This document shows, in pieces, positions 5,850 through 63,020 of a DNA stretch of 64,000 nucleotides. Within the stretch, counting starts at the first letter, position 1. Every line of letters starts with the position of its first letter. The position numbers and the translations under genes are program-made. This DNA comes from Candidatus Algichlamydia australiensis (lineage in GTDB: Bacteria; Chlamydiota; Chlamydiia; Chlamydiales; JAJFMI01). A model generated the notes under the pieces. It was not told the DNA's origin, searched no databases, and saw only the letters and a list, made by a program, of their open reading frames with translations. The stretch lies in the NCBI GenBank assembly GCA_033977065.1, contig JAXCHI010000004.1, positions 284,724-348,723 of the forward strand, in the 5' to 3' direction.

Positions 5850-5872
5850 TGTCCGAAAAATAGGAGAATACT

Positions 5873-7450: not shown

Positions 7451-7473
7451 CATTTGCTAGACAGGAGAATACC

Positions 7474-8559: not shown

Positions 8560-8577
8560 AGTTTTGCTACTCATTTT

Positions 8578-8646: not shown

Positions 8647-8701
8647 AAAATGTAAACTTATTATTTAAATCTGGAAAAAGCAATTTTTAGGAGGGTATTT
8701 C

Positions 8702-8730
8702 TTGTTTTTTTAGTATTGTCTTGATATAAT
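8702..8730 (+). promoter_or_regulatory. Candidate promoter of Inc-like paralog 3
   Basis: TTGTTT, 17 nt spacer, TATAAT. It aligns with the promoter modules at 5821 and 7422. Confidence 0.45.
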
Positions 8731-8752
8731 ATTAATATATTTAAAATTATAT

Positions 8753-9667: not shown

Positions 9668-10194
9668 TCATTGACAAGGCCAACAGCCTGCATAAATGAG
9701 TAAATTATAGTGGGTCCAACAAAGGCCATACCGCGCTTCTGTAAATCTTTTGCTATCGCAGTGCTAATGTCTGTTTTGCAAGGGACATCTTGAGAGTTTT
9801 TCCACTTATTGACAATAGGTTTATAGTCGACATACTTCCATAGATAAGAATCAAATGAGCCAAACTCTTTCTGAATTTTAAGAAAAATTTGTGCGTTTTG
9901 GCGAGCACTAAAGATCTTTCGTCTATTGCGAATAATTGCAGGATTTAAGATGAGGTTCTCAAGATCTTGATCAGACATTTTTGCTACAGTTTCTGGATCA
10001 AAGTTATGAAAGTGTTTCCGGTAAGCTTCTCGTCTTTTCAGTATGAGTTCCCAGTTTAAACCTGCTTGAGCGCCTTCTAAAACTAGCATTTCAAAAAGGT
10101 GTCTGTCATCGTGAACAGGGATACCCCACTCTTCATCGTGGTACTTGGCGTACAATTCTTTTCCGGGGCCATCCCCAAAGCATCGTTTTTTCAT
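9622..10194 (-). CDS. tag: DNA-3-methyladenine glycosylase I
   Basis: 190 aa. The motif YHDEEWGIPVHDDRHLFEMLVLEGAQAGLNW is typical of Tag. Confidence 0.9.
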   Translation of the reverse strand: MKKRCFGDGPGKELYAKYHDEEWGIPVHDDRHLFEMLVLEGAQAGLNWELILKRREAYRKHFHNFDPETVAKMSDQDLENLILNPAIIRNRRKIFSARQNAQIFLKIQKEFGSFDSYLWKYVDYKPIVNKWKNSQDVPCKTDISTAIAKDLQKRGMAFVGPTIIYSFMQAVGLVNDHLISCSIQSAFSTD

Positions 10195-36446: not shown

Positions 36447-37382
36447 ATGAGTAATTCAATAGATCGTTACGATGTTGCAACATACGCACTAAATCTTGGT
36501 TTTGCTGCCGCGTCTGCTTGCGAGCACTCCCGTATAGGCAATGTATTAAGTAAATGGCGTATAAGTTTATTACTACTTGGAGCAACAACCTATGCTTTTA
36601 ATTATGTCCAATTTATTAGGACATTGTCCGATGACTTAAAAGATCAATTTAATCCTCACAAAAGCGAAGTCGATAACGATTTTTTTAAGTTCTCGCTTGC
36701 AATTACACCTATTTTTGCCGCTTTCTTGCTTCCAGTTGCTTGCCATTATTTGGGAAAGAGAGTAACTCACGCATTTCCTAGGGTTCAGTTGCAAGCGCCT
36801 AAGGGCTGTACTGCAGAATGGCTAGCTCCCTCTACATTTCACAACTTGGTTCAAGGATTTGCAGTGTCAAATGCACTTTTAAATCTTGCTGCAACTTTTG
36901 GTGGAAATGCGCACTCAAGATTATCTACAGGAGTTTTGTCTCTATTACACTTTGGCACAATACCTACACTTGCAAGTGGAAATCTAATTGAAGCGACTAC
37001 CACAAGAGATCATAGTGATGGAAAAACACAGTTCCTTTTCAGCTATATTTTTCGAGTAAAAAAACCTACTGATCCCTTGACCATAAGTGAAAGTGGTACA
37101 GTTTATTCCTATTCAAAAGTTATAGAAAATTTTTATAAAAATATTCAACAAATTAAACTTGATGATAGCACAGTTGAATGCTCTGAAAAAGCGATACCAA
37201 TTGTTGTTGGTGTGAATCCAACAATCACTAAAATCGTGAAATTGATTACCTATCACTTAACAGTTGCCAAAGACCTTATACCTGAAAAACTCAAAGGCTT
37301 TTCTCAACTCACTGCTTTTGTAAAAGATACGGGGCCCTTTGTTCCCAACGTCATCAAGGCAGCATCTATTGTGCCTTTGTAG
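36447..37382 (+). CDS. Hypothetical membrane protein, tandem paralog B
   Basis: 311 aa, with the same length class and N-terminal pattern as 35491-36432. Its RBS is ggaga. Its 3' end overlaps the uvrA 3' end by 17 nt. Confidence 0.6.
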   Translation: MSNSIDRYDVATYALNLGFAAASACEHSRIGNVLSKWRISLLLLGATTYAFNYVQFIRTLSDDLKDQFNPHKSEVDNDFFKFSLAITPIFAAFLLPVACHYLGKRVTHAFPRVQLQAPKGCTAEWLAPSTFHNLVQGFAVSNALLNLAATFGGNAHSRLSTGVLSLLHFGTIPTLASGNLIEATTTRDHSDGKTQFLFSYIFRVKKPTDPLTISESGTVYSYSKVIENFYKNIQQIKLDDSTVECSEKAIPIVVGVNPTITKIVKLITYHLTVAKDLIPEKLKGFSQLTAFVKDTGPFVPNVIKAASIVPL

Positions 37383-40300
37383 GTGAAATGATGTTTACTA
37401 CCTTTCCACCTTTCTCACCAGCTCCAGGCCCTAGCTCGATTTGGTAGTCAGCCGATTCGATGATATCGGAGTTGTGCTCGATCATAATAATGGTATGACC
37501 GCTATCGACAATTTTATGGAAAATTTTGAGGAGTTTTTCGATGTCGACACTGTGCAGGCCGATAGTCGGTTCGTCAAAGAGGTAGAGGGTGTGGCGTTTG
37601 GCTGGACGGACGAGTTCGCGAGAGAGACGCAGGCGCTGCGCTTCTCCGCCAGAGAGCGTTTGCACGCGCTGGCCTAAGGTGAGGTAGCCAAGTCCCACTT
37701 CTACTAAAACTTTTAGTGTCTTTTGAATTTTCGGAATTTTTGGGAGGAAGTCAATCGCTTCATTTACGGTGAGGTTGAGCAGTTGCCCGAGGTTTTTTCC
37801 TTTGTAGGTCACCTCAAGGGGAAGGGGAGCGAGGCGATTGCCATTACAGCTGTCACAGGTGATGGTCACAGCCGGCATTAGCTGTAGCTGGATTTTGCGT
37901 GTTCCCAGGCCCCAACACTTGCGACACATGCCTTTCATGTGGTTGTAGCTAAAATGGTAGGCTTTCAGGTTGCGCATGCGCGCTTCGGGTAGTTCAGCAA
38001 AAAAGCGGCGCAGAGGTGTAAGAAGATCGGAATAGGTGGTGATGTCAGCACGTGCAGTGTGTCCAATAGGAGATTGGTCAAGTGCAATGCATTTTTCGAT
38101 TTGCTTAAGCCCTGAGATTTTGCTTCCATGAATGGTAATGGTGTCGGGGGGTTGCCTATGCGTAAGCGCTTTTTCGACAGCTGGCCGTAGTAGGTGGTGC
38201 ATCAGCGTCGATTTTCCCGATCCTGAGACACCGGTAATGCAGGTAAAAATGTGCAGGGGAATGTCTAGAGAGATATTTTTAAGATTGTGCAGCGAAGCGT
38301 TTTCAATTTTTAAAACTTTTTTGGTAGGTTTGCGGTATTTGCAATCCACAGCGCTCTTTTCTCCAGAGAGGTAGGCGCCAGTAAGCGATTTCGGATCGCG
38401 TTTGATTTGCGCAATAGAGCCTTGTGCAATGATCTGCCCCCCTTTTTTTCCCGCTTCTGGGCCAAAATCGATGAGATAGTCGGCTGTGTTAATAGTAAGA
38501 GGGTCGTGCTCAACAAGAAGGAGAGTATTGCCGCTTTTACAGAGTTTTTTTAGTGCGCGGTTGAGTAGCGCGTTATTTTGCGGATGCAAGCCGATAGTGG
38601 GTTCGTCTAAAACATAGAGGCAGCCAGTTAGACCAGATCCAAGCTGACGCGCTAAATGAATGCGCTGTGTCTCCCCACCTGAAAGTGTAGGTGCGCTACG
38701 AGAGAGCGCGAGATACTCAAGTCCGATTTCCATCATAAATTTTAGGCGATGATCGATCTGCGAGAGCGTCTCATCGAGAAGGTTTTTCTTCTCTTTTGGA
38801 AGGGAGAGTTTTTTCAAGAATTGTACTGTTTGTGAGATGGGAAGCTCACACACCTCTGGAAGGGTTTTTCCTGCAACTTTTACCCCTCGTGCAAGGGGAT
38901 TCAAGCGCGCTCCGTTGCAGCTTGGACAGGGAGACTCGTCCATGTGTGGCAAGATCTCTTTGCGTAAATTATTTTTTGCCGCCTTTGCTCGCTTAGCAAA
39001 GAGCGTTTCAAAGCCGATCCATTTAAAAGAAATTTCTGCAAAAGTAAAGCTCTTTTCGCTACCTCTCATTAATAGTTTTTGCTGCTTATCTGAGAGGTCA
39101 CAGAGAGGGGTGTTGGGATCAATTTCTTCTTTTTCAAGAAATGCCTCAAAAAGCTCTAAAGCTTCATCAGAGAGACGATCTTTGCAGAGATAGTAGAAGA
39201 GTGTGATGGGAGGGCAACGCATGATTTTAGGAAAGCGAGTAAGATCTGCGCCCCACTGAATGCCAAGTCCCTGACAGTCAGGGCACATGCCCTCTTCAGA
39301 ATTGAAAGAGAAGGTGTGGGGTTTAATTTGGGGGTAGGAGCGTCCCGTTGAAGGAACCGCGAATTCTAAGTTAAAGAAAAGATCTTGATCATCAAGGGCT
39401 GCAATCAGTTTTCCTTCTCCACGCTCGCTCGCAAGGGAGACGGCCTCAAAGAGGCGTGGAGTGATGTCAGGTTTGATTACGATCCGATCGATGACAAGAT
39501 GGAACTCCTGTTTGACTCCGCGTGAGAAGGGGATTTCATCTTCCAAATCATAGGTCGTGCCATTGAGCCGCACGCGGCGAAACCCTTCTGCTTTGAGTCG
39601 CATAAGAAGAGAGGAAAAGTCTTCTCCATGCCGAAGAGTGAGTGGGGCTAAAATTTGCACACGCGTCTTTTCTGGAAGCTCTTGCAACTTCTTGCAAACA
39701 AACTCTTTGGTAATTGCTACAATTTTTTCACCCGTCTCAGGACAGAATGCTTCACCCAAATGCGCGTAAAGCAGGCGCAAATAGTCATAGACTTCTGTCA
39801 TGGTCCCAATCGTTGAGCGTGGATTGCCTGCGTGGCGCTTCTGTTCAATAGAAATTGCTGGAGATAGGCCCTCAATCAACTCTAATTTTGGCTTGGCCAT
39901 CTGCTTGACAAACTGGCGTGCGTAAGAGGGGAGAGACTCAATATAGCGACGCTGCCCTTCAGCATAAATTGTCTCAAAAGCAAGCGAACTCTTCCCCGAC
40001 CCAGAAGGTCCCGTACAAACCGTCATTTTGCCGCGCGGAATTGTGAGATCAATTCCTTTTAAATTATTTTGTTCTGCTCCCTTCACTACAATCTCTGTAT
40101 GCTTTGAGACTCTCTTTTTAGATGGTGCGCTGACTCTCTTTTTCTCCCCCAGCGCAATCCCAGTTGCCGTCTTTGCTTTGATGATCTGTTCCGGTGTGCC
40201 CTCAGCAAGAACATTTCCATCCTCCAAATCGATGACCCAATCGGCTACCTTGATCAAATCCAAATTGTGCTCAATAACAAGGACTGTATTGCCTTCGCTC

Positions 40301-42936
40301 ACAAGTCGCTCCAAAATGCGCAGCAAGCGGTCAATATCGCGAAAATGGAGACCTGTTGTCGGTTCATCTAAGATGTAAAGAGTTTGTCCCGTCGAGGGGC
40401 GAATGAGCTCTTTGGCAAGCTTGATGCGCTGCGCCTCCCCACCAGAAAGCGTGGTGGAGCTCTGGCCGATTTTCATGTAGCCGAGACCCACGTCGTTGAG
40501 AAGTTGCAATTTTTTGCGAATATTAGGAATTGCATCAAAGAACTCCAACCCTTCTCGCACACTCAAGCGCATCACGTCGTAGATCGATTTTCCCTTGTAA
40601 AGAACAGAGAGCGTTTTGGGATCAAAACGACGCCCGTCACAGAGAGGACAAGTTGCAAAACTATCCTCTAAAAAGTCCATATCGATACGTATCTGACCCA
40701 TTCCAGAGCATTTAGGACACGACCCCTCGCGCACATTAAAACTAAAACGACCTGAAGAAAACCCTTGCGCCTTAGCATCGGGAAGCGAAGCAAAGAGATT
40801 GCGAATATCGTCGAACAACTTCACATAAGTCGCAGGATTGGAACGCGGCGTGCGGCCAATGGGCGTTTGATCGATTGCAATAACCTTGTCCAGATGCTCG
40901 ATGCCCTCTAATGCCTTGTGCTTGGCGGGGCGTAGCAGCGATCGCTGTAATTTATTGGAAAGAGCAGGGTAGAGCGTATCAATAATCAGCGAAGATTTTC
41001 CCGCACCTGAGATTCCTGTTACTGCAACAAAAAGTCCAAGAGGAATTTCCGCATCCATCTTTTGCAAATTATTCGCCTCAGCGCCTCTGATCACTAGCCT
41101 TTTTTCTGTAGGCTTGCGGCGGCTTTTCGGAGTTGCAACTTTTTCTTTTCCCGAGAGGTAAGCACCCGTAACAGAGCGCGGGCTCTTGATCAGATCAGCC
41201 GGCTTGCCTTGTGCCACAATCTCACCGCCTTCAACACCTGCACCAGGACCCACATCGACAATCTCATCGGCCGCATAAATCGTCTCCTCATCGTGCTCAA
41301 CCACAATCACCGTGTTGCCTTGATCGCGCAAGTTCAAAAGCGTGCGAATGAGGCGCTCATTATCTGTCGGGTGCAAGCCAATTGAAGGCTCATCTAAAAT
41401 ATACGTAGTCCCAATCAGCCCCGCTCCAATTTGTGAAGCGAGGCGCACACGCTGCGCTTCGCCACCTGAGAGCGTTGCTGAAGTCCGCTCTAAAGAAATA
41501 TAGTGCAGGCCGACATCAAGGAGAAAATGCAGACGCCTCTGCAACTCCTTAATCATCTCAGCCCCGACTTTTTTCTCCATTTTGGAGAGCTTAAGCGCAT
41601 CAAAAAAATTTGCCGCCTCAGCAATTGTCATACTCGTGATATCGTGAATTGTCTTTTTTCCAAGCGTTGTCACCCGAGGGTAAGAGCGAATGCGCGCGCC
41701 CAGGCAGTCAGGACAGACCTGTTCGCTCATCATCTCTAGCATCCGCTGCTTGTACTTTTCGCTCTTAGCTTCATTAAAGCGTTTTTTAACCTCATGTAAA
41801 ACGCCCTTCCACTCCACATATTCAATCCAGCGCTTCTTAGACTTTGGATGGACAAACGTCATCTTCGTCCAGCGCTCCTCCGTCCCATGCAGAAAAATAT
41901 GCTTGGCACTCTTTGAAAGCTTTTTCCAAGGCTTCTTTACATTAAAATCAAAAATGCGGCCTAAATTGCGATAGATATTGCCCCAGAGTACCGTCTCAAA
42001 ACTGCCCGCAATTGCGATGCAGTCCTCACTAATACTCTTCTCTTCATCGATGATTTTTTCCTCATCAAAGACAAGAGTCGTGCCCAAACCCGAACAAGCC
42101 GGACACATGCCTTTCGGATGGTTAAAAGAGAAATCTTGCGGTTCAAGCGGGGGATAAGAAATTCCCGATTTAGCTGAATGCGCATGCGTAGAAAAAAGAT
42201 GTTCCTTGCCACTCTCCACTTCAAGACAGCTCATCACACCCTTGCCTAGCTCAAGAGCGCTACTTACCGCCTCTTTCAACCGCCCACGGTTTTCACGATC
42301 AACCTTCAATCGATCAACCACTAGATCGACATCGTGTGAGACACTTTTTTTAAGCGACATACCCTCTTCTAGCTCAACAATCTCGCCATCGACACGCACC
42401 CGCATGAACCCTTTGCGAAGTAGCTCCGCAAAATCTTCCTTAAACTCGCCCTTTTTACCCTTTGCAAACGGCGCCAATACAATTAGCTTTGTACCTGCCT
42501 TCAACTCACTAATCTGCTCTAAAATTTGCGTATTGCTCTGCGGCGTGACACGCTCCCCACTCTCCGGACAGTGCGCCACACCAATCCGCGCAAAAAGTAC
42601 CCGCAAATAGTCATAAATTCCCGTAATCGTCCCGACAGTTGACCTCGGACTCTTGTGCGTGGTCTTCTGCTCAATGGAAATTGTGGGAGAAATCCCGGTA
42701 ATCAGCTCCGCATCAGGCTTAGGGATATCGCCCATATACCGTCGCGCATACGTAGATAAAGATTCAATATAACGGCGCTGCCCTTCAGCATAGATCGTAT
42801 CAAACGCCAGCGAGCTTTTGCCTGAGCCAGAGACCCCGGTAAAGACAATCAATTGTCCCGGCTTTAGCTCTAAAGAAACTTTTTTAAGGTTATGTACAGA
42901 AACTTTTTGAAGTTGGATCTTAGGACTTTCGCTCAT
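37366..42936 (-). CDS. uvrA: Excinuclease ABC subunit A, double-length (two complete UvrA units fused)
   Basis: 1856 aa. GVSGSGKSSLAFDTIYAEGQRRYIESLS near residue 35 recurs as GPSGSGKSSLAFETIYAEGQRRYIESLP near residue 960. There are four ABC signature/Walker sets and zinc-finger Cys pairs. Confidence 0.95.
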   Translation of the reverse strand: MSESPKIQLQKVSVHNLKKVSLELKPGQLIVFTGVSGSGKSSLAFDTIYAEGQRRYIESLSTYARRYMGDIPKPDAELITGISPTISIEQKTTHKSPRSTVGTITGIYDYLRVLFARIGVAHCPESGERVTPQSNTQILEQISELKAGTKLIVLAPFAKGKKGEFKEDFAELLRKGFMRVRVDGEIVELEEGMSLKKSVSHDVDLVVDRLKVDRENRGRLKEAVSSALELGKGVMSCLEVESGKEHLFSTHAHSAKSGISYPPLEPQDFSFNHPKGMCPACSGLGTTLVFDEEKIIDEEKSISEDCIAIAGSFETVLWGNIYRNLGRIFDFNVKKPWKKLSKSAKHIFLHGTEERWTKMTFVHPKSKKRWIEYVEWKGVLHEVKKRFNEAKSEKYKQRMLEMMSEQVCPDCLGARIRSYPRVTTLGKKTIHDITSMTIAEAANFFDALKLSKMEKKVGAEMIKELQRRLHFLLDVGLHYISLERTSATLSGGEAQRVRLASQIGAGLIGTTYILDEPSIGLHPTDNERLIRTLLNLRDQGNTVIVVEHDEETIYAADEIVDVGPGAGVEGGEIVAQGKPADLIKSPRSVTGAYLSGKEKVATPKSRRKPTEKRLVIRGAEANNLQKMDAEIPLGLFVAVTGISGAGKSSLIIDTLYPALSNKLQRSLLRPAKHKALEGIEHLDKVIAIDQTPIGRTPRSNPATYVKLFDDIRNLFASLPDAKAQGFSSGRFSFNVREGSCPKCSGMGQIRIDMDFLEDSFATCPLCDGRRFDPKTLSVLYKGKSIYDVMRLSVREGLEFFDAIPNIRKKLQLLNDVGLGYMKIGQSSTTLSGGEAQRIKLAKELIRPSTGQTLYILDEPTTGLHFRDIDRLLRILERLVSEGNTVLVIEHNLDLIKVADWVIDLEDGNVLAEGTPEQIIKAKTATGIALGEKKRVSAPSKKRVSKHTEIVVKGAEQNNLKGIDLTIPRGKMTVCTGPSGSGKSSLAFETIYAEGQRRYIESLPSYARQFVKQMAKPKLELIEGLSPAISIEQKRHAGNPRSTIGTMTEVYDYLRLLYAHLGEAFCPETGEKIVAITKEFVCKKLQELPEKTRVQILAPLTLRHGEDFSSLLMRLKAEGFRRVRLNGTTYDLEDEIPFSRGVKQEFHLVIDRIVIKPDITPRLFEAVSLASERGEGKLIAALDDQDLFFNLEFAVPSTGRSYPQIKPHTFSFNSEEGMCPDCQGLGIQWGADLTRFPKIMRCPPITLFYYLCKDRLSDEALELFEAFLEKEEIDPNTPLCDLSDKQQKLLMRGSEKSFTFAEISFKWIGFETLFAKRAKAAKNNLRKEILPHMDESPCPSCNGARLNPLARGVKVAGKTLPEVCELPISQTVQFLKKLSLPKEKKNLLDETLSQIDHRLKFMMEIGLEYLALSRSAPTLSGGETQRIHLARQLGSGLTGCLYVLDEPTIGLHPQNNALLNRALKKLCKSGNTLLLVEHDPLTINTADYLIDFGPEAGKKGGQIIAQGSIAQIKRDPKSLTGAYLSGEKSAVDCKYRKPTKKVLKIENASLHNLKNISLDIPLHIFTCITGVSGSGKSTLMHHLLRPAVEKALTHRQPPDTITIHGSKISGLKQIEKCIALDQSPIGHTARADITTYSDLLTPLRRFFAELPEARMRNLKAYHFSYNHMKGMCRKCWGLGTRKIQLQLMPAVTITCDSCNGNRLAPLPLEVTYKGKNLGQLLNLTVNEAIDFLPKIPKIQKTLKVLVEVGLGYLTLGQRVQTLSGGEAQRLRLSRELVRPAKRHTLYLFDEPTIGLHSVDIEKLLKIFHKIVDSGHTIIMIEHNSDIIESADYQIELGPGAGEKGGKVVNIISPTKAQ

Positions 42937-42994
42937 AGGGGGAAGTATAAGAGATTTCTGTACTTTTATGCGAATTTAGATTATATTACTTCTT

Positions 42995-44545
42995 ATGAAT
43001 ATCGTGCCAGTAAGTCTAGAAGCAACTAAAAATTATTTTAATATAGATCGCGCAGGATGGAGCCAAACAGCAGGGAAGGTGAGTTCCTTTATCTTCTCAC
43101 ATAAGAGGGGGCTGTTGGGGTTGACTCTTATTCTCTTCCCATTTGTACTTGTCGCAAAGAAATATTATAACATTACAGACGTGTGGCCTCATCAAGTATT
43201 AATTGCGAATATTTTATATTCTTTACGTAATTATGTGCCGGAAAATTATCGCGTAGGGATTGAGCGGTATGTTGGTGAAGTCTATCCGGCAAATAAATTC
43301 TCTGAAGAAGATAGGGAAGAATTACAAGAGTGGGTTAATCAAGCACAACCTAGGCAAGCACAAGCTAGAGTAATTGGAATAATTGATTCTCAGGAATCAC
43401 GTCAGAGACTTATGAACTGTTTGCTACGAGGTAGTAAGGAACTGGAGTATGCACCTTCAAGTTTTTTAGAATTAAACGTTTTTGATAAGCTTTCGCACCT
43501 CCAGTCAATAGAATTTAATTCAGATGAAAAACTGGATCTTCCAGAGAAGATTCTAAATTTAAAAAATCTGCGTAGTTTGCGACTTGAAAATTTTAGAATT
43601 CCAGAAAATTTTGAATTTGAAAGACTTTCTAAAATCCAACAGCTTTCTCTAATTAAGTGCGATATTTCAAATGATGTACACTTGGAAAAACTCTTTTTTT
43701 TAAAAAAACTTCGTATTTCCGAATCTAAACTTGAAGCATTACCTTTTTTACCATTAAAAAATTTAGTTACATTAGATCTTTATTCCCTTGATCTTGCTGT
43801 TATTCCTGAATGGATCGGAGGTTTATCAAAATTAGCTAGTTTAACATTGACTAAATGCGCAGCTTTAAAAAGCCTACCAGAAGAAATTTATCGGCTGCCA
43901 AAGGGATGCAAAATAAACATATGGGCTTCTGGACTGGCTCATGCCCCTATTTTTGAGCAGACGACAAAAGAAGGTTATTCAGGACCTAAATTCTCTACAG
44001 AAAGTAGGACTAGTTCTTTCCCTTTTAGAAAGACTCCTTTTTTAAGATTTGGAGCTAGCTGGCTTGATGTAGTCAAAGAGCTTGACAAATGGATTCATGT
44101 AAATAAGGAGAATTCTCTTAGCCGTATAAGATTTCGAGATGAAATCATAAATAGAAGTTTTATTTTTGAGAATTTTAGTCAGGGTGACGAACTAGAGAAT
44201 AAAGCATACATTGACATGTTGGCATTTATTTTGAAAAAGAGTCGAGACACGGGTAAACCTTTTCAATCTTATTTTGAGTTTTGCCCAAGAAGCGTTGTTG
44301 AGTATGAAAGAACTCTCGAAATATTGGAATATATAGCAGATAAATATGCAGGCTCATACACAATGGCATTTTATAACTATAATCATCTGCCACTAGAAAT
44401 AGATTTTGAAAAATTAGGAGGGTTGCTTTATCAAAGAGAACGTTGCAGTAGGTTGTCGATTGAAGGATTTACCTTACGAAACTTCGGTTATCTCGATAGT
44501 CTACCGATCGAAAAATTATCTCTAGAAAATTGTGAAATTTTGTAA
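42995..44545 (+). CDS. Leucine-rich-repeat protein with an N-terminal TM anchor, paralog 1
   Basis: 516 aa. The TM segment is LLGLTLILFPFVLVA. LRRs include LKNLRSLRLENFRIPENFEFERLSKIQQLSL and LVTLDLYSLDLAVIPEWIGGLSKLASLTL. Confidence 0.8.
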   Translation: MNIVPVSLEATKNYFNIDRAGWSQTAGKVSSFIFSHKRGLLGLTLILFPFVLVAKKYYNITDVWPHQVLIANILYSLRNYVPENYRVGIERYVGEVYPANKFSEEDREELQEWVNQAQPRQAQARVIGIIDSQESRQRLMNCLLRGSKELEYAPSSFLELNVFDKLSHLQSIEFNSDEKLDLPEKILNLKNLRSLRLENFRIPENFEFERLSKIQQLSLIKCDISNDVHLEKLFFLKKLRISESKLEALPFLPLKNLVTLDLYSLDLAVIPEWIGGLSKLASLTLTKCAALKSLPEEIYRLPKGCKINIWASGLAHAPIFEQTTKEGYSGPKFSTESRTSSFPFRKTPFLRFGASWLDVVKELDKWIHVNKENSLSRIRFRDEIINRSFIFENFSQGDELENKAYIDMLAFILKKSRDTGKPFQSYFEFCPRSVVEYERTLEILEYIADKYAGSYTMAFYNYNHLPLEIDFEKLGGLLYQRERCSRLSIEGFTLRNFGYLDSLPIEKLSLENCEIL

Positions 44546-44583
44546 TTTTCAGACTTTTTCAAAAAAAATATTATAATATCCCT

Positions 44584-44655
44584 AAAGCCAATCAATTGTC
44601 CCATTTTTAGCTGCAAATAAATTTTTTTAAGTTGGACCTTAGGACCTTCGCTCAT
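44584..44655 (-). pseudogene. Relic of the uvrA 5' end (first ~24 codons), duplicated with the LRR gene unit
   Basis: The minus-strand atgagcgaaggtcctaaggtccaacttaaaaaaatttatttgcagctaaaaatgggacaattgattggcttt aligns with uvrA codons 1-32, with a 24 nt internal deletion. The flanking promoter region is also duplicated. Confidence 0.8.
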
Positions 44656-44712
44656 AGAGGAAGTATAAGAGATTTCTGTACTTTTATGCGAATTTAGATT
44701 ATACTACTTCTT

Positions 44713-46281
44713 ATGAATATCGTGCCAGTAAGTCTAGAAGCAACTAAAAATTATTTTAGCATAGATCGTGCAGGATGGAGCCAAACAGCACGACATGTGG
44801 GTTCCTTTGTGTTAAGCCACAAAAGGGAGCTGTTGGGAATTACCATTGCTTTCCTTGCGGTTGCTGGGGCTGCATCATTCGTTTATCAACAATATACAGA
44901 TGTTTGGCCGCATCAACTGTTTATTGCAAATCTCTTGTACCCCTTACGCAATTTCGTTCCGCAAAAAATAAAAGGAGGAATTGAAAGGTATAACAGCGAA
45001 GTCTATCCGGTGCACAAATTTACAGAAGAAGATCGACAAGAATTGCAAAATTGGGTGGAAAGAGTTCCCCTTGGTGTACATCACATGGGCGGAGCTAGAA
45101 GGGAGATCCGCGAAACTATAATGGAAGAGGTTCTTGCCGGTAAAAAGAGCCTGTCGAAGGAAGTTCCAGTAAATTTTTTACGGCTAAACGTGTTTGATAA
45201 ACTTTCCCATCTTCAAAAAATAAAAATTGTTTCGGGAGGAACGAAAATCGATCTACCTGAAGCGATCAAAAAATTAAAAAATCTCCAAACCTTACATCTA
45301 AACAAGTTAATAATTCCCGAAGATTTTCAATTTGCAGAATTTCCTAAATTGGAGTGCCTTTCTTTAGAATTTTGTGACGTTCCGTGTGGCCTTCAACTAG
45401 AGAATCTTAAGCATTTAAAGAAGCTTAGTCTTAGTTATAATTGTACACTTGGTGCACTCCCTTCAATTCCATCGAAAAATTTAGTATCGTTGGAGCTTTG
45501 TTGCACACTTTTGGCTTCTGTTCCAACTGCAGTCGGGGGCTTCTCAAAGTTAACTTTTTTAGATTTGAGCCATAATAGAGAAATGAAAAGCCTACCTGAG
45601 GAAATTTATCAATTATCAAAGAAATGTAAAATATTAATAGGGTGGTCTGCTATTGCTCTTGCGCCTGTCTTTCAAGAGATAATAAAAGAAGGCTATTCAG
45701 GGCCTCAATTTTTTGTTAATAGCACGCCTATTGATGAAGGCGATTATCATCTTCCTTTATCTGAAAATAAAAGTCATTCATTTTTGTCATTGGGATCTAA
45801 TTGGCTTGAAATAGTCAGAGAGCTTGATAAACTTGTTCATGACAACGTCCCTCTTCATAGATCTTTTCGAGAAAAAATTATACATAACAAATTGACCGAT
45901 TATAAATTTAGGCTAGGGGAGCATATGCGACAAGATAAGAAAGTTATCGACATGCTGGTATATATTTCGAATAACTGCGAAGCAGGAAGCCCAATACGTA
46001 ACTGTCACTTTCAATTTGAACCAATGTGTGTTTCAGATACGGAACAATCCATTAAAATAGCAAATTATATTATCGATAATTACAAAGAAAAATATTCATT
46101 CTCATTTAGGAAGCTTGGCCCCAGACCTCTAGAGATAAATTTAAGAGAATTGGTGGGCCTAGCGAATCAAACAGAACTCTGTAGTAGCCTGTCGATTAAA
46201 GGATTTACCTTGAGGAATTTTGATTATTTGGACACTTTATCGGTAGAAAAGCTTTCAATAGAAGATTGTGAAATTTTGTAA
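44713..46281 (+). CDS. Leucine-rich-repeat protein with an N-terminal TM anchor, paralog 2
   Basis: 522 aa, collinear with paralog 1. Of its first 26 codons, 25 are identical at the protein level, and it has the same C-terminal ending, C(E)IL. Confidence 0.8.
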   Translation: MNIVPVSLEATKNYFSIDRAGWSQTARHVGSFVLSHKRELLGITIAFLAVAGAASFVYQQYTDVWPHQLFIANLLYPLRNFVPQKIKGGIERYNSEVYPVHKFTEEDRQELQNWVERVPLGVHHMGGARREIRETIMEEVLAGKKSLSKEVPVNFLRLNVFDKLSHLQKIKIVSGGTKIDLPEAIKKLKNLQTLHLNKLIIPEDFQFAEFPKLECLSLEFCDVPCGLQLENLKHLKKLSLSYNCTLGALPSIPSKNLVSLELCCTLLASVPTAVGGFSKLTFLDLSHNREMKSLPEEIYQLSKKCKILIGWSAIALAPVFQEIIKEGYSGPQFFVNSTPIDEGDYHLPLSENKSHSFLSLGSNWLEIVRELDKLVHDNVPLHRSFREKIIHNKLTDYKFRLGEHMRQDKKVIDMLVYISNNCEAGSPIRNCHFQFEPMCVSDTEQSIKIANYIIDNYKEKYSFSFRKLGPRPLEINLRELVGLANQTELCSSLSIKGFTLRNFDYLDTLSVEKLSIEDCEIL

Positions 46282-46445
46282 TTTTCAGATTTCCTAAAAA
46301 ATATTTTAATATCCCTAAAGGCAATCAACTTTCCTAGATTCAATTATAACGAAAGTTAGTGAATTCAGATCAGAAGAGCTTTAATCCTATTGGAAGTATT
46401 GGGAATCTCTATACTTTATTACAAGTTCATGTTAAAATGTTCTCT

Positions 46446-47402
46446 ATGAATGCTACAAATTTAACTGAAACAAGTCTAAAAATATCAAAAAATATTTTTA
46501 ATTTTGATCATGCTGCATGGAGCCAGACGGCAGAGAAAGTGGGCTCTTTTTTCCATTCACACAGATTTCTAATGGCTAAAATAGTGTTGGGAGTGACTCT
46601 TTTAAATATTGTTACTATTATGGGCGCTGGATCTCTGATATATAGAAAAATGCGAGGTGTTTGGCCACATCAAGTACTTACTGCAAATATTTTATATCCT
46701 CTTCGTAATTATACACCTGAAAGTTGGAAAACAATCATTGAGAACTATAATGACGAAATCAACCCGGCAAATAAATTTACAGCAGAAGACAGAGAAGAAC
46801 TACAAGAGTGGGTTGATCAAGCAGAAGAGCGACCTGATAGAGGTGCAGGGATTCCTGATTCTCGGGATTTACGCCAAGGACTCATGAATCGTGTGCTAGA
46901 AGGAAAGAAGAATTTAGATTTTTATTTACGTAGGCCTTTAAACTATTGGGAGCAGGGGGGGCTTCCTGATGAAAGAGAAATAGTTGTTCCTCTAAGTTTT
47001 TTAGATTTAAAAGTATTTAATAAATTATCTCATATTTCTGATATTAGCATTAAATCAAATGAAAAACGCGATCCACCAGAGGAGATTTTAGATCTAAAAA
47101 ATCTTCGTAGTTTGACTCTTATAAATTGTACAATACCAGAAAACTTTGAGTTTGAAAAACTCCCTAAATTGGAAAAACTTTTCTTTTGGCGGTGCGATAT
47201 TCCAGATATTTTGTATTTGAAAAAGGTAAGCAATTTGCATCAAATTGGTATTGCAAATTGTACAATACCAGAAAACCTTCAGTTTGAAGAACCCTCTAAA
47301 TTTGAAAAACTTTTCATTGTTGATTGCAATATTCCAGATATTACGTTTTTGGAAGGGTTAAGCCATTTGCGTGGAATTGATATTGAAGATTGTATAATTT
47401 AA
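46446..47402 (+). CDS. Leucine-rich-repeat protein with an N-terminal TM anchor, paralog 3 (shorter, ends inside the LRR region)
   Basis: By alignment to the paralog N-termini (MNATNLTETSLKISKNIFNFDHAAWSQTAEKV vs MNIVPVSLEATKNYFNIDRAGWSQTAGKV), the start is ATG 46446 rather than 46359. It lacks the ~200 aa C-terminal region of paralogs 1 and 2. Confidence 0.7.
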   Translation: MNATNLTETSLKISKNIFNFDHAAWSQTAEKVGSFFHSHRFLMAKIVLGVTLLNIVTIMGAGSLIYRKMRGVWPHQVLTANILYPLRNYTPESWKTIIENYNDEINPANKFTAEDREELQEWVDQAEERPDRGAGIPDSRDLRQGLMNRVLEGKKNLDFYLRRPLNYWEQGGLPDEREIVVPLSFLDLKVFNKLSHISDISIKSNEKRDPPEEILDLKNLRSLTLINCTIPENFEFEKLPKLEKLFFWRCDIPDILYLKKVSNLHQIGIANCTIPENLQFEEPSKFEKLFIVDCNIPDITFLEGLSHLRGIDIEDCII

Positions 47403-47473
47403 ATTGCCATTCTGTAACCTAGAGGATCTTCCGCTTCAGATTACAGTTTTTTGTATAGTATTTGTTAGTTCAA

Positions 47474-47517
47474 CTGAAGTTGCTACCCAGTTTCTCCTAT
47501 AGAGAGGGGGATTTTTT
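47474..47517. repeat. Family-C repeat, half copy
   Basis: ctgaagttgctacccagtttctcctatagagagggggatttttt matches the reverse complement of 54931-54985 (ctcaagttgccactcagtttctcctatggagagagggattttt). Confidence 0.7.
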
Positions 47518-47617
47518 CTTTGCATATTCTCCGCAGATAATTAATCATATTAAATAATTGAATTCTTGTAACTTATCGCTTTTTTAGTTAAAATATTCCC
47601 ATAACAAGGTTACTCCT

Positions 47618-48310
47618 ATGCTAACTGTAAATGAATACTTTAATCACTCTTGTACGCTCGCCAACGCAGGAAAAGAGCGCCTGGTCTCCTATTTTAAACC
47701 TGTATCAAGCTATGCAGAAACGTTTTTTAGTGAAGGAGCGAAAGAGACAATTGCTAAAAATCGCGTTCTAATTATAACAGTTCTTTCAATTACAGCCCTA
47801 GGATTAACAGGGCTATCTGTTTATTACATTGCAAAGCGGGTCTTCAGTAAAACAACTTCCGATGCCAAACCTTCTCTTAAGAGGAGCCCAGAGTATGACA
47901 AAAATACAGGCAGGTATTCTAGTGCCGGGTGCTCTTTTGCTCTTCCTAATGGAATAAATCCCAAAGAGGAGGAGATAACATTTATCCTTCCGAGTGGTGT
48001 AAAGCTGACGTTTTTTCAATATAAAGACCGTACAAAGTCCACAATTGATGATGACTTGAGCGCGTATACTACTCATTATCAGAAAGGCTTGAATCAAGAA
48101 CCCAAAAAAGGTTCTCTTGATAACGGACTTAAGTATCTCGCAATCTCTCCGATTCATGTTGAAGGAAATCCCTATTTAAAATCCTATACTATCTACAACG
48201 GAGAGGATAGATATAGGTTTACGGCGACTCATATAGAGCAAGCAAAGATAAAAGAGAGTATTGAAATGAATGCAATTTTAGAATCATTTACCCTTACTAA
48301 GGAGAGCTAA
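47618..48310 (+). CDS. Hypothetical single-TM protein, family member 1 of 3
   Basis: 230 aa. The pattern FFSEGAKETIAKNRVLIITVLSITALGLTGLSVYYI is shared with the next two genes. Confidence 0.65.
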   Translation: MLTVNEYFNHSCTLANAGKERLVSYFKPVSSYAETFFSEGAKETIAKNRVLIITVLSITALGLTGLSVYYIAKRVFSKTTSDAKPSLKRSPEYDKNTGRYSSAGCSFALPNGINPKEEEITFILPSGVKLTFFQYKDRTKSTIDDDLSAYTTHYQKGLNQEPKKGSLDNGLKYLAISPIHVEGNPYLKSYTIYNGEDRYRFTATHIEQAKIKESIEMNAILESFTLTKES

Positions 48311-48311
48311 A

Positions 48312-49016
48312 ATGGCAGCTATAGGAACTACACTTTCCATAGCAGGGAGCGCTGCTCAAGCTTTACCTGGAGCAAACACTAACCAAGCAAAGACAATTGC
48401 TAACAGATTCTTCAACAATGATATAAAAAAAACATTTGTGCAAAACCGCACTCTTATTTTCGCTACTCTTACAGTAGTAACTTTGTCATCTACTGTACTC
48501 GCTATCTATTTTGTTTATCAAAAAAATGTAACCCTCAATAAAACAGATAAAGAAAATGAGTTCACGATTCAAATCAGTGGAAATCGTGTTTCTGTTTCTC
48601 CCTCAGGTTTTACTTTTCAGATTCCTTCAAGTACAAAACAACACGCAAATCAGAAATTTTTGCTACCTGAAGATTTAACACTACAATTTTCAGTCTCTAA
48701 GACGAACAAGAGCATTGGTGATTATGTGGAAGAATTTAAAGATAATGCATGTTCAGGAAAGACGGAAAAACCGATAAGTGTAAATGGAAGATTAAGAACT
48801 TCATACGCAGGAGAGTTTGTTCCACAATTGTTTAGCGTTAATGGGGTTCAGGTTCTAGAACGTCGCCCTAAAAAAGTGCTTGAGGGAGTGTTTGAGCGGA
48901 GCTATTACATAGTAGGTGCAGGTCGCCTCTACCTACTAAAATTTTCTCACGAAAGTGATCCGTCAAAACTAGAAACTTTACAAAATGTTTTAAAATCAAT
49001 AGTTTTTCATAATTAG
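48312..49016 (+). CDS. Hypothetical single-TM protein, family member 2 of 3
   Basis: 234 aa with FFNNDIKKTFVQNRTLIFATLTVVTLSSTVLAIYFV. Its ATG lies 1 nt after the previous stop and has the RBS aaggagag. Confidence 0.65.
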   Translation: MAAIGTTLSIAGSAAQALPGANTNQAKTIANRFFNNDIKKTFVQNRTLIFATLTVVTLSSTVLAIYFVYQKNVTLNKTDKENEFTIQISGNRVSVSPSGFTFQIPSSTKQHANQKFLLPEDLTLQFSVSKTNKSIGDYVEEFKDNACSGKTEKPISVNGRLRTSYAGEFVPQLFSVNGVQVLERRPKKVLEGVFERSYYIVGAGRLYLLKFSHESDPSKLETLQNVLKSIVFHN

Positions 49017-49025
49017 AGACTTAAG

Positions 49026-49748
49026 GTGACAACTGTAGGAAATATTATTACAGAAGCAAGCAAAGCCACTCAGGGTTTACCTGCAGCAAAAATGGACCGA
49101 GCGAGTTTTGTTGCTAGTACGTTTTTTAGCGGAGGTATGCGCAACTTTATTGCTGAGAATAGATCATTCGTTATTGCGCTTTCTGCAGCCACGCTATTTG
49201 GTACAGCTTATTTAGTTCATAAAATGATATCTGAAAAAACTGGAGTTAAGTATAACATCCAATTTGACCTTCCTGACGGAGTAAAAAAGGCTGATTTAGA
49301 AAAATCTATCAATCTGGAAGTGGCCAAAGAGAGTGCAAAAAAAGAAATTACCGCTCGTCAAAAAGATGGCATTGTTTTTACTGATGAAGAAATAGCCTTT
49401 CTTTGTGCCGATCTGATAGAAATACAGCTATTTAAAAAGCCTAGTGCAAAAGAGTTATATGTATTTTGTTCCATCCAAAGCAGAGATCAAACGTTTGATT
49501 TTTCACAAATTCATACTGTTTGGACGAAATTCTATGGAAAAGATTTTGTAGAATCAACGCTCTTAACTTTGACAAGTGGGGAAAAAGCCGTCCGTTTTAG
49601 GGTGTCAGGTAAAGAAGCTTCTGAAATTGTCATGATTGAGAAAGGGGGGTTCTTTTACGGGCTCTGTTTTCCTTCTTCTGAAGTTCAGCTATTAACGTTT
49701 CGGGCTGATGTAACAAATCTGATCAATTCAATCACATTTCCCGAATAA
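49026..49748 (+). CDS. Hypothetical single-TM protein, family member 3 of 3
   Basis: 240 aa with a GTG start and FFSGGMRNFIAENRSFVIALSAATLFGTAYLV. Confidence 0.6.
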   Translation: MTTVGNIITEASKATQGLPAAKMDRASFVASTFFSGGMRNFIAENRSFVIALSAATLFGTAYLVHKMISEKTGVKYNIQFDLPDGVKKADLEKSINLEVAKESAKKEITARQKDGIVFTDEEIAFLCADLIEIQLFKKPSAKELYVFCSIQSRDQTFDFSQIHTVWTKFYGKDFVESTLLTLTSGEKAVRFRVSGKEASEIVMIEKGGFFYGLCFPSSEVQLLTFRADVTNLINSITFPE

Positions 49749-49798
49749 AATTCTGAATAGAAGCAAAAAGCGTTTTCTGTAATTAGCTCAAAAGTCTG

Positions 49799-50025
49799 TT
49801 TAGGGGTGTTCTCTTAATTTATGAATTTGAGGGGTGGTTTTCTTTTTAGAAGAAATTTATTATAGAGGGTAAAAGCAGCTTGATAAAACTCAAGTTACTA
49901 CCTAGTCTCTCCAGAAGGGGATGGGGGTAGCAACTTGAGTTTGATAAAATCGGTGAAATCTGAATAGCAAATCTACTCAGAAAGAAAACCGAACAGCAAG
50001 TTCAAAAATTCAGAGAACACCTCAA
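49799..50025. repeat. ~227 bp long imperfect palindrome with a family-C core, abutting the pyk start codon
   Basis: The outer arms are tttaggggtgttctcttaattt and aaattcagagaacacctcaaa. The inner arms are ggttttcttttt and agaaagaaaacc. The core is aaactcaagttactacc-tagtctctccagaaggggatgg-ggtagcaacttgagttt. Confidence 0.75.
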
Positions 50026-51825
50026 ATGCACCGTAGAACAAAAATTGTTTGTACTATAGGCCCCGCCGTCAGCAGCGAAGAGAAGATCGATCAGCTGATT
50101 TCCGCAGGAATGAATGTGGCGCGCTTAAACTTTAGCCATGGGACCCGTGAGGATCACGCGAAAACAATTGCTAATTTAAAAAAACTGCGTAAAAAGCGTG
50201 AAATTCCTCTAGCTATCATGCTGGATACGAAAGGACCTGAGATTCGTGTAGGCAAGTTAATCCAAGAGCAGCTTGAGTTAAAGAAGAGAGACAAACTTAA
50301 GCTAGTAAAAGGTGAGGCAAAAGAGAGCTTAGAGGTGCCAATTACGCCCGCTTCTGTTGTAGATGATTTAGAAGAGGGAATGCATGTACTCTTTGATGAT
50401 GGCTACATCAGTGCAAAGGTTATAGAGAAAAGCAAAGACTTTGTAACAGTTCAAATAGAGAATCCTGGCGTTCTGCTTAGCAATAAAGGAATCAATATCC
50501 CCCATGAAAATATTGATTTACCTGCGATGACAGAACAGGATATGGCAGACATTCGGTTTGGGTGTGAGCAGGATGTGGATATTATTGCCGCATCGTTTAT
50601 TCGCTCTGCAGAGCATATTCTTGAGATCAAACAGCTGCTGGCAAAAGAGAAGGCGCAGGATATCATGGTCATGGCCAAGATAGAGAGCGCTGAGGGGGTC
50701 AACCACTTTGACTCTATTCTCCAGGCAGCAGATGGAATTATGGTAGCAAGGGGCGATCTAGGCGTAGAATTGCCTCTTAAAGATGTGCCGCGCTTGCAGA
50801 AAATGATGATTCGTAAGTGCTACCATTCAGGCAAGTCTGTGATCATTGCGACGCAAATGCTAGAGTCGATGATCACAAATCCAAGACCGACGCGAGCAGA
50901 AGTCTCTGATGTAGCCAATGCGATCTATGATAGTGCATCTGCTGTGATGCTCTCAGGAGAGACCGCTGTTGGTAAGTACCCAATTGAAGCGGTTAAAATG
51001 ATGCGCAGCGTAATTGAAGAGGCTGAGAGCGATTTTGACTACCGCAGTTTTTTCTACAGTGACACAAGAGGGGATTTTTATGATGTGGCGACTTCTGTTG
51101 GCTTAGCATCGGTAAAAACAGCCTATGCGATCGATGCAAAAGCTATTTTTGTCTTTACTCATAGTGGTAATGCGGCGCGTACTATTGCCCGTTTGCGACC
51201 TTATCAGCCGATCATTGCACTCTCTCCTACACAGAAAACTTATCATCAGATGGGCGTAAATTGGGGGGTCGTCCCATTTTTTGGTGAGGTTAAGGATTTG
51301 AAGAGCGGATTCGCCACTCTGAGCTGTTTTGCACTGAAGAAAAAGCTTACGCGCTATGGAGATTTGGTAGTCGTTTCAGCAGGATCGCCCTTTGGGATTT
51401 CAGGAACAACTAATACAATGATTGTGGAAAATATTGGAGATGTTCTAGTGCGTGGGTACGCGACAAAAAAAGGCAAACGCACAGTTGGGAAAGTGCTCAT
51501 TGTGCTCTCTACAGAAAATAAAAGACAGTACCATATACAAGGCAAAGTTGCGGTGCTCACTGCTTGTGATACAGAGTATGAGAAGCTTCTGCATGGAACA
51601 GCTGGAATCATTTTACAGAATCATCCAGACGATTTAGAGTCGGAAAAATGTGCCAAGGCACTGGCAAAAAACCTTAATGTTCCTCTGATCACGCGTGCTG
51701 ATAACGCCTCCACAATTCTGCAAGAAGGACAACTGGTCACTCTTGATCCGCAAAAAGGTCTTGTTTTCAAAGGATCGTTTTCAACAGACGATGAGATGAT
51801 TCATCAAGTTTGTTGTGATGATTGA
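50026..51825 (+). CDS. pyk: Pyruvate kinase with a C-terminal PEP-utilising-enzyme mobile-domain-like extension
   Basis: 599 aa with RRTKIVCTIGPA, NFSHG and MVARGDLGVE. The last ~115 aa (GKVAVLTACD...GIILQNHPD...LVTLDPQKGLVF) resemble the swivelling domain found in Bacillus-type PK. Confidence 0.9.
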   Translation: MHRRTKIVCTIGPAVSSEEKIDQLISAGMNVARLNFSHGTREDHAKTIANLKKLRKKREIPLAIMLDTKGPEIRVGKLIQEQLELKKRDKLKLVKGEAKESLEVPITPASVVDDLEEGMHVLFDDGYISAKVIEKSKDFVTVQIENPGVLLSNKGINIPHENIDLPAMTEQDMADIRFGCEQDVDIIAASFIRSAEHILEIKQLLAKEKAQDIMVMAKIESAEGVNHFDSILQAADGIMVARGDLGVELPLKDVPRLQKMMIRKCYHSGKSVIIATQMLESMITNPRPTRAEVSDVANAIYDSASAVMLSGETAVGKYPIEAVKMMRSVIEEAESDFDYRSFFYSDTRGDFYDVATSVGLASVKTAYAIDAKAIFVFTHSGNAARTIARLRPYQPIIALSPTQKTYHQMGVNWGVVPFFGEVKDLKSGFATLSCFALKKKLTRYGDLVVVSAGSPFGISGTTNTMIVENIGDVLVRGYATKKGKRTVGKVLIVLSTENKRQYHIQGKVAVLTACDTEYEKLLHGTAGIILQNHPDDLESEKCAKALAKNLNVPLITRADNASTILQEGQLVTLDPQKGLVFKGSFSTDDEMIHQVCCDD

Positions 51826-54818: not shown

Positions 54819-54985
54819 CGAAACTCAAGTTGCTACCCCTTTCCCCCTTTGGAGAGACCCTTTTTGCGATCTACTTAGTTTAAAATTTCAGAAATGCTTG
54901 ATAAACATTCCTTCAATTTGAAACGAAACATCTCATCAAAAATCCCTCTCTCCATAGGAGAAACTGAGTGGCAACTTGAGTTTCG
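54819..54985. repeat. Family-C long palindromic element (expanded copy)
   Basis: The arms are cgaaactcaagttgc and gcaacttgagtttcg. The inner inverted pair is cccctttggagagaccc and ccctctctccataggag. Confidence 0.75.
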
Positions 54986-55046
54986 AATTAAAATAGAGTC
55001 CAAAAATTGGCCAAAATAATTGAAAATCTTTCTCTTGATGAGGAGT

Positions 55047-62679: not shown

Positions 62680-62949
62680 GAATAAAAAATCAAATTTTTA
62701 AAACTCACTAATTATCAAAACCTTAAATGTTAAGGAAGGTTTGAATAACTGCTGTACTGATAGCATGAGGCGAAAATTCTAAAAAAAAGTTATTTGGAGA
62801 CCGTAAATGACTGGATATAGTTATTAGAGGTTGAAAATAATCTTTTCTAGGATTTTTCGGCCGTAAGATCTACGGATGAGTTGTTTAGACCTTTCTTAAA
62901 GTGGAAATTGTTGTAGAAAAACTGTTTTGTTTAAAAGAGGTTATTCAAT

Positions 62950-63001
62950 ACTCAAGTTGCTACCCAACTTATCCAGAAGGGGAAGGGGTAGTAACTTAAG
63001 T
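62950..63001. repeat. Family-C hairpin repeat (short copy)
   Basis: actcaagttgctaccc, loop aacttatccagaaggggaag, gggtagtaacttaagt. The loop motif tccagaagggga is the same as at 49905-49925. Confidence 0.75.
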
Positions 63002-63020
63002 TGGGTAATGATTTCATAAT

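Follow-up and report, generated by a model that had tools for sequence, protein, structure and literature searches.

How does the start of a housekeeping gene come to lie between two members of an array of leucine-rich repeat (LRR) genes, and why should it be so well preserved there? This question is raised by a stretch of 64,000 nucleotides (nt) of DNA, analysed here as a whole (the window), from Candidatus Algichlamydia australiensis, a deep-branching, Simkaniaceae-related chlamydia whose host is the dinoflagellate Cladocopium and whose metagenome-assembled genome was built from long and short reads into 7 contigs (PMC11317633). In the window three LRR genes stand next to the divergently oriented uvrA gene; their products (LRR1-3) were found in a protein search to be 100% identical to SNF33_07190, SNF33_07195 and SNF33_07200 of this organism, and the spacer between the first two genes holds a fragment of the uvrA 5' end. 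We place the probability at roughly 0.8 that this feature is a molecular fossil left at the join of a tandem segmental duplication and later partly overwritten by gene conversion. The elements that meet at this first junction are as follows:

37366-42936, minus strand: uvrA, parent of the relic, encoding a double UvrA of 1856 amino acids that is typical of Chlamydiota (from the open reading frame list)
42840-42936, minus strand: donor segment, uvrA nt 1-97 (codons 1-32 plus 1 nt), delimited by alignments
42937-42994: divergent intergenic region between uvrA and LRR gene 1, 58 nt, read from the sequence
42995-44545, plus strand: LRR gene 1, 516 amino acids, SNF33_07190
44546-44712: spacer between LRR genes 1 and 2, 167 nt, which holds relic 1
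44546-44582, plus strand: 3' flank of unit 1, with the right breakpoint between 44582 and 44583
44583-44655, minus strand: uvrA 5' relic 1, 73 nt (uvrA nt 1-97 minus 24), delimited by alignments
44656-44712: copy of the intergenic/promoter region at junction 1, 54/57 identical to 42938-42994
44713-46281, plus strand: LRR gene 2, 522 amino acids, SNF33_07195, with 48% protein identity to LRR1

An earlier reading of this DNA from its letters alone (the sequence-only reading) had described a uvrA fragment with its ATG and a 24-nt gap at 44584-44655, and three-way and pairwise alignments agree with this description: positions 44583-44655 are a same-orientation copy of uvrA 42840-42936 with the ATG kept and one clean 24-nt gap, the true left end thus lying 1 base further than claimed. 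Identity to uvrA amounts to 41/49 positions distal (left) of the gap and 25/27 proximal (right) of it. The similarity also held against shuffled controls, as the uvrA-coding part aligned to junction 1 with a local score of 68, compared with 15.8 +/- 2.5 for shuffles (maximum 29; 0/1000 reaching 68), and the observation of relic 1 is thereby confirmed. The following 57 nt, which had been taken for a copy of the promoter region between uvrA and LRR1, are indeed such a copy, matching the 58-nt intergenic region at 54 of 57 positions with a single 1-nt indel. Because the 24-nt deletion is in frame, the relic still translates as the start of UvrA (MSEGPKVQLKK--------IYLQLKMGQLIGF, with MSESPKIQLQKVSVHNLKKVSLELKPGQLIVFTG as the UvrA counterpart). 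Its ATG opens a reading frame of 55 codons (44488-44655), which overlaps the 3' end of LRR1 in antisense: the ~31 additional stop-free codons have an estimated chance probability of ~0.1 in such AT-rich DNA and are hence unremarkable.

The edges of the copy identify the breakpoints. At junction 1 the homology to uvrA ends precisely at TAAAG (boundary ...ATATCCC/TAAAG...); to the left of this motif uvrA reads ...GACCCCGG, whilst junction 1 reads ...TAATATCCC, the latter continuing the LRR1 3' flank. The order at the junction is therefore 3' flank (44546-44582), uvrA nt 97 to nt 1 on the minus strand, intergenic copy and LRR start. The units are arranged head-to-tail with start-to-start spacings of 1743 and 1733 nt and show homology along their whole length. 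The proposal of a tandem duplication with its left breakpoint inside uvrA is thus upheld and can be made exact: the unit comprises ~1.74 kb (42840-44582), its left breakpoint falls between 42839 and 42840, after uvrA nt 97 (codon 33), and its right breakpoint lies 37 nt beyond the LRR stop codon.

The gap within the relic coincides with a repeat in the parent gene:

42874-42888 and 42898-42912: direct repeats within uvrA, 15 nt each, 14/15 identical, with 24-nt spacing, read from the sequence

The two copies read AGAAACTTTTTTAAG (42874-42888) and AGAAACTTTTTGAAG (42898-42912); the deleted length is exactly one 24-nt repeat period and the relic retains one repeat copy. A deletion between direct repeats had been proposed before and this stands, but the repeat itself, given as caac-tt / taac-ctt, is in fact longer, with 14 of its 15 nt matching. 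In order to assign polarity we turned to 80 uvrA orthologous loci, gathered by a scan of GTDB genomes with the UvrA N-terminus as query (50-64% identity; the collection does not contain the source genome): the VxVHNLK segment is present ungapped in 79/79 alignable chlamydial UvrA N-termini, and the event was therefore a deletion in the relic and not an insertion in uvrA. From its sequence context, a deletion one period long between 15-nt repeats carries the signature of slippage or short-repeat recombination.

The second junction of the array, between LRR genes 2 and 3, shows the same seam in a far more decayed form:

46282-46445: spacer between LRR genes 2 and 3, 164 nt
46282-46315, plus strand: 3' flank of unit 2, same seam as 44546-44582
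46316-46388, minus strand: uvrA 5' relic 2, full length, decayed, ATG lost
46389-46445: copy of the intergenic/promoter region at junction 2, decayed, 33-34/57 identical to the other two
46446-47402, plus strand: LRR gene 3, 318 amino acids as annotated, SNF33_07200; an alternative upstream ATG at 46437 is possible

Here the sequence-only reading had seen a shorter uvrA trace at 46313-46334. The trace is real (46313-46337 against uvrA: score 23, shuffles 10.3 +/- 1.8, 0/2000), but it is not short, as the relic is present at full length with the same deletion. The 3' flank together with the first 22 nt of the relic aligns between junctions 1 and 2 with a score of 68 (shuffles 14.7 +/- 2.7, 0/2000), and the remainder, compared ungapped and in register, is identical at 29/54 positions (shuffles 15.0 +/- 3.2, 0/5000), with registers shifted by 1-2 nt giving only 11-18 matches. 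Identity of relic 2 to uvrA has fallen to 33/49 and 15/27 in the two parts. Since relic 2 is gap-free and collinear with relic 1, it carries the same 24-nt deletion; the left boundary (ATATCCC/TAAAG) is identical at both junctions, and the stop codon and 3' flank of unit 1 (44543-44582) match those of unit 2 at 34/37 positions. The seam was therefore made once, the deletion came next and the third copy derived from units that already had both.

Junction 2 also bears on the possibility that the uvrA fragment was pasted later into an existing LRR1-LRR2 spacer, through ectopic conversion or patch repair that copied the uvrA 5' end, the promoter and the LRR1 5' end over the front of LRR2. The fragment and promoter at junction 1 do look far younger than the flanking genes, as such an event would predict; however, junction 2 has the identical boundary and the 24-nt deletion and yet is heavily decayed, and the seam is therefore old and predates the separation of units 2 and 3. 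Moreover, a patch needs homology on its left side, which only a relic already in place could supply, and we thus consider a later paste very improbable.

For a duplication seam the following order of events would account for both junctions. An ancestral LRR gene would have stood head-to-head with uvrA in the normally short intergenic region between uvrA and pyk. A segment of ~1.74 kb, reaching from uvrA nt 97 through the 58-nt divergent promoter and the whole LRR gene to a point 37 nt beyond the stop codon, would then have been duplicated head-to-tail, which would have left a uvrA 5' fragment and a full promoter copy upstream of the new LRR gene. The fragment would have lost 24 nt via slippage or recombination between the 15-nt direct repeats, and a later unequal exchange between units would have generated the third copy, which inherited seam and deletion. 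The copies would subsequently have diverged almost to saturation, before a more recent homogenisation of units 1 and 2 affected ~160-210 nt around the promoter, in a tract that would end near the 24-nt heterology. The sequences themselves show the homology, the breakpoints, the polarity of the deletion, a seam common to both junctions, the unevenness of divergence and the lineage-specific position of the block, from which the order of events, conversion in preference to constraint and any activity of the promoter are inferred. Bacterial tandem-duplication joins, as known from the duplication-amplification work of Roth and Andersson, arise where homology is short or absent and are expanded afterwards by unequal, RecA-dependent exchange. 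The present array resembles such a textbook join in its head-to-tail units, in the end of one unit abutting the start of the next, in the truncated flanking gene and in the passing on of the join to further copies. It differs from a recent, unstable amplification in being old and fixed (~48% protein identity), with a join later hit by deletion and partial conversion.

The sequence-only reading further held that the relic dates the growth of the array. This does not stand: divergence along the unit is very uneven, with a sharp switch in site patterns at 43069-43073, and relic 1 owes its good preservation to later homogenisation or to constraint and does not record how old the duplication is. 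The well-preserved part is the following:

44629-44790, paired with 42910-43072: homogenised 5' island, ~95% identical, a putative conversion tract

Units 1 and 2 are only ~60% identical overall, with longest exact repeats of 54 and 45 nt, whereas the island, which covers the proximal relic, the intergenic region and the first 26 LRR codons, contains 8 differences in 162 nt. In a sliding window identity is 82-83% in the distal relic and 94-98% over ~42900-43050, from where it falls to 88%, 77% and 65%; it remains at 42-73% in the gene body (also put at 50-65%) and climbs back to 72-84% at the 3' end. The transition within the coding sequence is abrupt: codons 1-26 of LRR1 and LRR2 show 3 nucleotide differences, and from codon 27 nearly all codons differ. 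Of the fourfold-degenerate sites, 11/12 agree in codons 1-29 and 39/75 in the rest (composition expects 31%), and the F81 distance is 0.05 in the island against ~0.78 elsewhere. When all three units are considered, 66/76 informative sites at 42840-43074 group units 1 and 2, with mixed patterns after 43074, whilst the grouping of units 1 and 3 dominates at 43330-43679 (79 vs 42). A maximum-chi-square breakpoint was placed at 43069-43073 (0/5000 permutations) and a second change near 43687 (48/5000).

The most likely cause of this pattern, judged from the sequences of the three units, is that the 5' island was homogenised by later gene conversion between units 1 and 2, rather than held by constraint. 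This is also the simplest reading: a fragment without function, had it the age of the gene bodies, would be expected to align barely at all, like relic 2. The partners would most simply be the block of uvrA 5' end, promoter and LRR1 5' end on one side and that of relic, promoter and LRR2 5' end on the other, and either of them may have been the donor. The best-preserved part of the relic begins just proximal to the deletion, as would fit a conversion tract unable to cross the 24-nt heterology. A single conversion tract over the whole relic was considered and rejected, since it clashes with the old, shared 24-nt deletion unless that deletion recurred. Gene conversion and concerted evolution between bacterial paralogues were reportedly treated by Santoyo and Romero in 2005, a work cited in PMC4209131. 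The island here is like such cases in comprising a short homogenised tract that includes synonymous and non-coding sites, with sharp boundaries and a mosaic signal; it is unlike the usual case in that the tract partners are the 5' end of uvrA, an essential-type housekeeping gene, and its own pseudogene fragment. Separately, a second island of raised identity is found at the 3' ends of units 1 and 2 (44423-44604 vs 46159-46337): the last 120 nt of the coding sequence are 72.5% identical and the preceding 120 nt 52.5%, and the first 22 nt of the relic match at 17/22 positions with 53% in the remaining relic. This island may be due to a further conversion tract, or to a promoter that was born at the junction and then conserved.

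Near-identity within an otherwise diverged array could also be produced by the assembly, or arise by chance in AT-rich DNA. The genome is metagenome-assembled, and short-read polishing of a long-read assembly can homogenise near-identical repeats. Chance is however excluded by the shuffle controls, and the units differ at ~40% of positions and so are not collapsed or expanded copies of one sequence; even within the island the 8 differences in 162 nt leave exact repeats of at most 54 nt, and the assembly is a hybrid of long and short reads in 7 contigs. An artefact, whether by chance, mis-assembly or polishing, would thus be a most surprising outcome.

The likeliest alternative is that the 5' island was conserved for its function instead of being converted. 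The LRR promoter would then extend into uvrA codons 1-9 and a further signal, such as one for type III secretion or translation, would lie in the 5' untranslated region (UTR) and first 26 codons under purifying selection; the relic itself may in this case fire a divergent antisense transcript or the 55-amino-acid peptide. The position of the island, centred on the intergenic region and start codon, is in keeping with such a role, as are the elements that junction 1 has retained: the uvrA ATG is preceded by a perfect minus-strand TATAAT 44 nt upstream (42985-42980), which is kept at 44703-44698 along with the relic ATG. A plus-strand TATAAG at 42946-42951 is kept there too, both boxes being candidate -10 elements only. 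In addition, the 58-nt spacer is too short for two complete divergent promoters with leaders, and the promoters therefore probably overlap the coding starts, which would also explain why the successful duplicate began inside uvrA. However, selection on a promoter or at the protein level does not usually preserve exact runs as long as 54 and 45 nt or keep 11/12 fourfold sites the same. Unit 3 shows no comparable conservation, as identity in its counterpart of the 5' region reaches only 58-66% and neither the ATG nor either of the -10-like boxes has survived there, which speaks against a general constraint; the 55-codon reading frame is likewise not conserved at junction 2, and the copies do exchange sequence, as is evident from the mosaic of site patterns in other parts of the genes. 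A consensus scan called no full sigma-70-type site in 42937-42994, and for the region as a whole it returned 19 sites against 16.0 +/- 4.4 in shuffles and hence no enrichment. No match was found by an Rfam scan of 42500-50100 (E<=1), no structured RNA was indicated by folding z-scores (+1.70 and +0.36 at the junctions, +1.15 for the relic minus strand and -0.08 downstream of LRR3) and no intrinsic terminator was found at the junctions. Conservation for function thus appears unlikely to us as the explanation of the island.

A sigma-70-like candidate at consensus level (TTCAGA-N18-TATAAT, 44548-44577) lies in the conserved 3' flank. As the sequence-only reading suggested, the relic may drive antisense or divergent transcription, for which such consensus-level motifs are only hints. 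It has to be asked whether relic and promoter island could have been kept near-identical as a portable, bidirectional promoter cassette, with the LRR promoter needing sequence in uvrA codons 1-9. In that event only duplications that include the uvrA fragment would give expressed copies, and at junction 1 the preserved promoter and ATG of uvrA would give rise to a transcript, or to a 55-amino-acid peptide, antisense to the LRR1 3' end, thereby coupling the expression of neighbouring array members. We hold such a cassette to be doubtful, with the odds well against it: most likely the relic is without a function of its own and rode along with the complete promoter, which is what mattered.

The interpretation as a duplication seam with later conversion has its own difficulties. 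Searches of genomes, proteins and metagenomes found the array in no second strain or close relative, and without relatives that carry it copy-number change, ancestral state and the direction of conversion are not directly observable. Since LRR gene 3 is truncated, what originally followed the right breakpoint has been lost, so that microhomology at the join is unreadable; a relative with a single copy was not found in the searches either. The distal relic has an intermediate identity of 84% (41/49), with no significant difference from the proximal part (Fisher p = 0.48), and a tract donated by uvrA across the deletion would restore the 24 nt, so that either the tract stopped there or an identical deletion recurred. 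A nucleotide-level constraint acting on a promoter, a 5' UTR or a secretion signal could leave the same picture as conversion, and both the three-unit array and the island are taken as the assembly gives them.

If the seam was formed and overwritten as proposed, the feature records at base-pair resolution how probable host-interaction genes came to form a lineage-specific array in the reduced genome of an obligately intracellular bacterium, covering an illegitimate join in a housekeeping gene, unequal exchange, slippage deletion and later gene conversion. It would also indicate that homologous recombination between short repeats is still active in this chlamydial lineage, and it carries the caution that well-preserved junction relics do not date a duplication. 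As a clean but ordinary example of known processes in array growth it leaves current understanding unchanged, a uvrA scar in an LRR array being one more case of a kind already known.

A comparable relic lies elsewhere in the window. The acpP fragment that had been cited as a parallel does exist (8579-8650 vs 5686-5757, 83% identity), and with it the duplication process recurs within the window. Both cases present a fragment of a neighbouring housekeeping gene with intergenic signals at an internal junction of a tandem array; the acpP relic differs in deriving from the 3' end of a co-oriented upstream gene, not from a divergent 5' end, and in being present at one of two junctions only. It comprises the last ~24 codons and downstream intergenic signals, between the Inc-like genes at 7474-8559 and 8753-9667. 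The junction of Inc-like genes 1 and 2 (7337-7473) has kept the hairpin/promoter-like part and has no recognisable acpP bases.

The surroundings of the array set this lineage apart from its relatives, in which the gene beyond it is normally the direct neighbour of uvrA:

50026-51825: pyk

Amongst the 80 related loci (maximum identity 64%), pyk lies divergently upstream of uvrA in 58, starting within ~330 nt in 40 of these, compared with a uvrA-pyk distance of 7,089 nt here. The GC content of the block of LRR and small-protein genes (44001-50000) is 0.34-0.36, against ~0.42-0.47 in the flanking housekeeping genes. Because uvrA and pyk are divergent neighbours in most relatives, the 7.1-kb AT-rich block of LRR and membrane-protein genes is lineage-specific. 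The same site carries an insert of ~8 kb with two WD40 paralogues in HK-STAS-VERR_A-4, which the genome paper names among the closest relatives (PMC11317633), and one of ~4.5 kb with TPR and MORN proteins in Ga0074140; the coordinates of the two inserts are 1954-10001 in locus L033 and 5450-10001 in locus L020. The uvrA-pyk intergenic region thus apparently is a recurrent insertion site for eukaryote-like repeat proteins in Chlamydiota. Homologues of LRR1-3 or o4-o6 were found in none of the 80 loci, inserts included, and neither was a uvrA relic: four blastn matches were similarities between UvrA halves or short matches adjoining the query stretch. Within uvrA itself, the halves 39735-40005 and 42561-42831 share 69.6% nucleotide similarity, which reflects the fused double-UvrA architecture; the double UvrA is 1839-1880 amino acids long in relatives L033 and L020.

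The LRR proteins themselves also appear restricted in distribution. With Pfam profiles, LRR2 scored 33.8 for LRR_4 and 31.2 for LRR_8, and LRR1 reached 27.0 for LRR_R13L1-DRL21 (cut-off 27). A structure prediction for LRR1 gave a mean predicted local distance difference test score (pLDDT) of 67.5, with a solenoid at residues ~100-320 modelled at pLDDT 80-93, and with the N-terminal region, which has one hydrophobic segment, and the C-terminal half poorly modelled. A fold search of the PDB returned generic LRR domains only, IpaH and SspH1 matching via their LRR part alone. Pfam profiles detected no NEL (PF14496), F-box, BTB or U-box domain in the three proteins, and membership of the IpaH/SspH-type LRR-NEL E3 ligases was rejected on the lack of a NEL match in any of them. 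LRR3 is without the C-terminal half of LRR1 and LRR2 and has an internal 132-nt tandem duplication (47123-47254 / 47255-47386; two LRR units, 80% identical). The end of LRR3 (...IEDCII*) resembles that of LRR1/2 (...LENCEIL*), so that an internal deletion instead of a 3' truncation is possible, although this is inseparable from generic similarity of LRR motifs. An exact-protein look-up of LRR1 in public assemblies returned no record, and a word-indexed search of 5.8 billion proteins gave only the three paralogues and generic LRR matches. When 1.84 billion representatives were searched exhaustively with HMMER for the N-terminal domain, only the three paralogues came back, together with one spurious protein of repetitive sequence (P0017), and a metagenome scan with the three-paralogue alignment found nothing. 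The family thus appears to be confined to this array, with no full-length relatives in public data. The genome description names ankyrin, WD40 and TPR proteins as candidates for host interaction and lists no LRR proteins (PMC11317633).

Tandem arrays of 'eukaryotic-like' LRR and TPR proteins that evolve by duplication in a birth-and-death manner are known from the Parachlamydiaceae, in a study that does not describe flanking-gene relics at the junctions (Domman et al. 2014, PMC4209131). The present array is similar in its lineage-specific LRR proteins, its tandem expansion and its degraded member, the truncated LRR3. It differs in comprising 3 genes only, in belonging to a Simkaniaceae-related genome, in the lack of detectable F-box, BTB or U-box domains and in an N-terminal domain that has no relatives outside the array.

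Two further observations concern other parts of the window. At 47618-49748, between the array and pyk, three adjacent paralogous genes encode proteins of 230-240 amino acids that match nothing in Pfam and have a single hydrophobic stretch near residue 50, predicted to lie in the membrane; with 22-36% identity over parts and only 1-9 nt between them, they form a further small, lineage-specific tandem family. Finally, a dispersed palindrome of ~60 nt (AAACTCAAGTTGCTACC...GGTAGCAACTTGAGTTT) occurs in intergenic positions at 49885-49947, 62947-63008 and 54821-54858, and as half-copies at 47448-47516 and at 54938-55006. Immediately upstream of pyk there is one copy, and LRR gene 3 is closely followed by a half-copy that carries a T-run. 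This element could be a repeat like the repetitive extragenic palindromic (REP) sequences or miniature inverted-repeat transposable elements (MITE), or a shared terminator.

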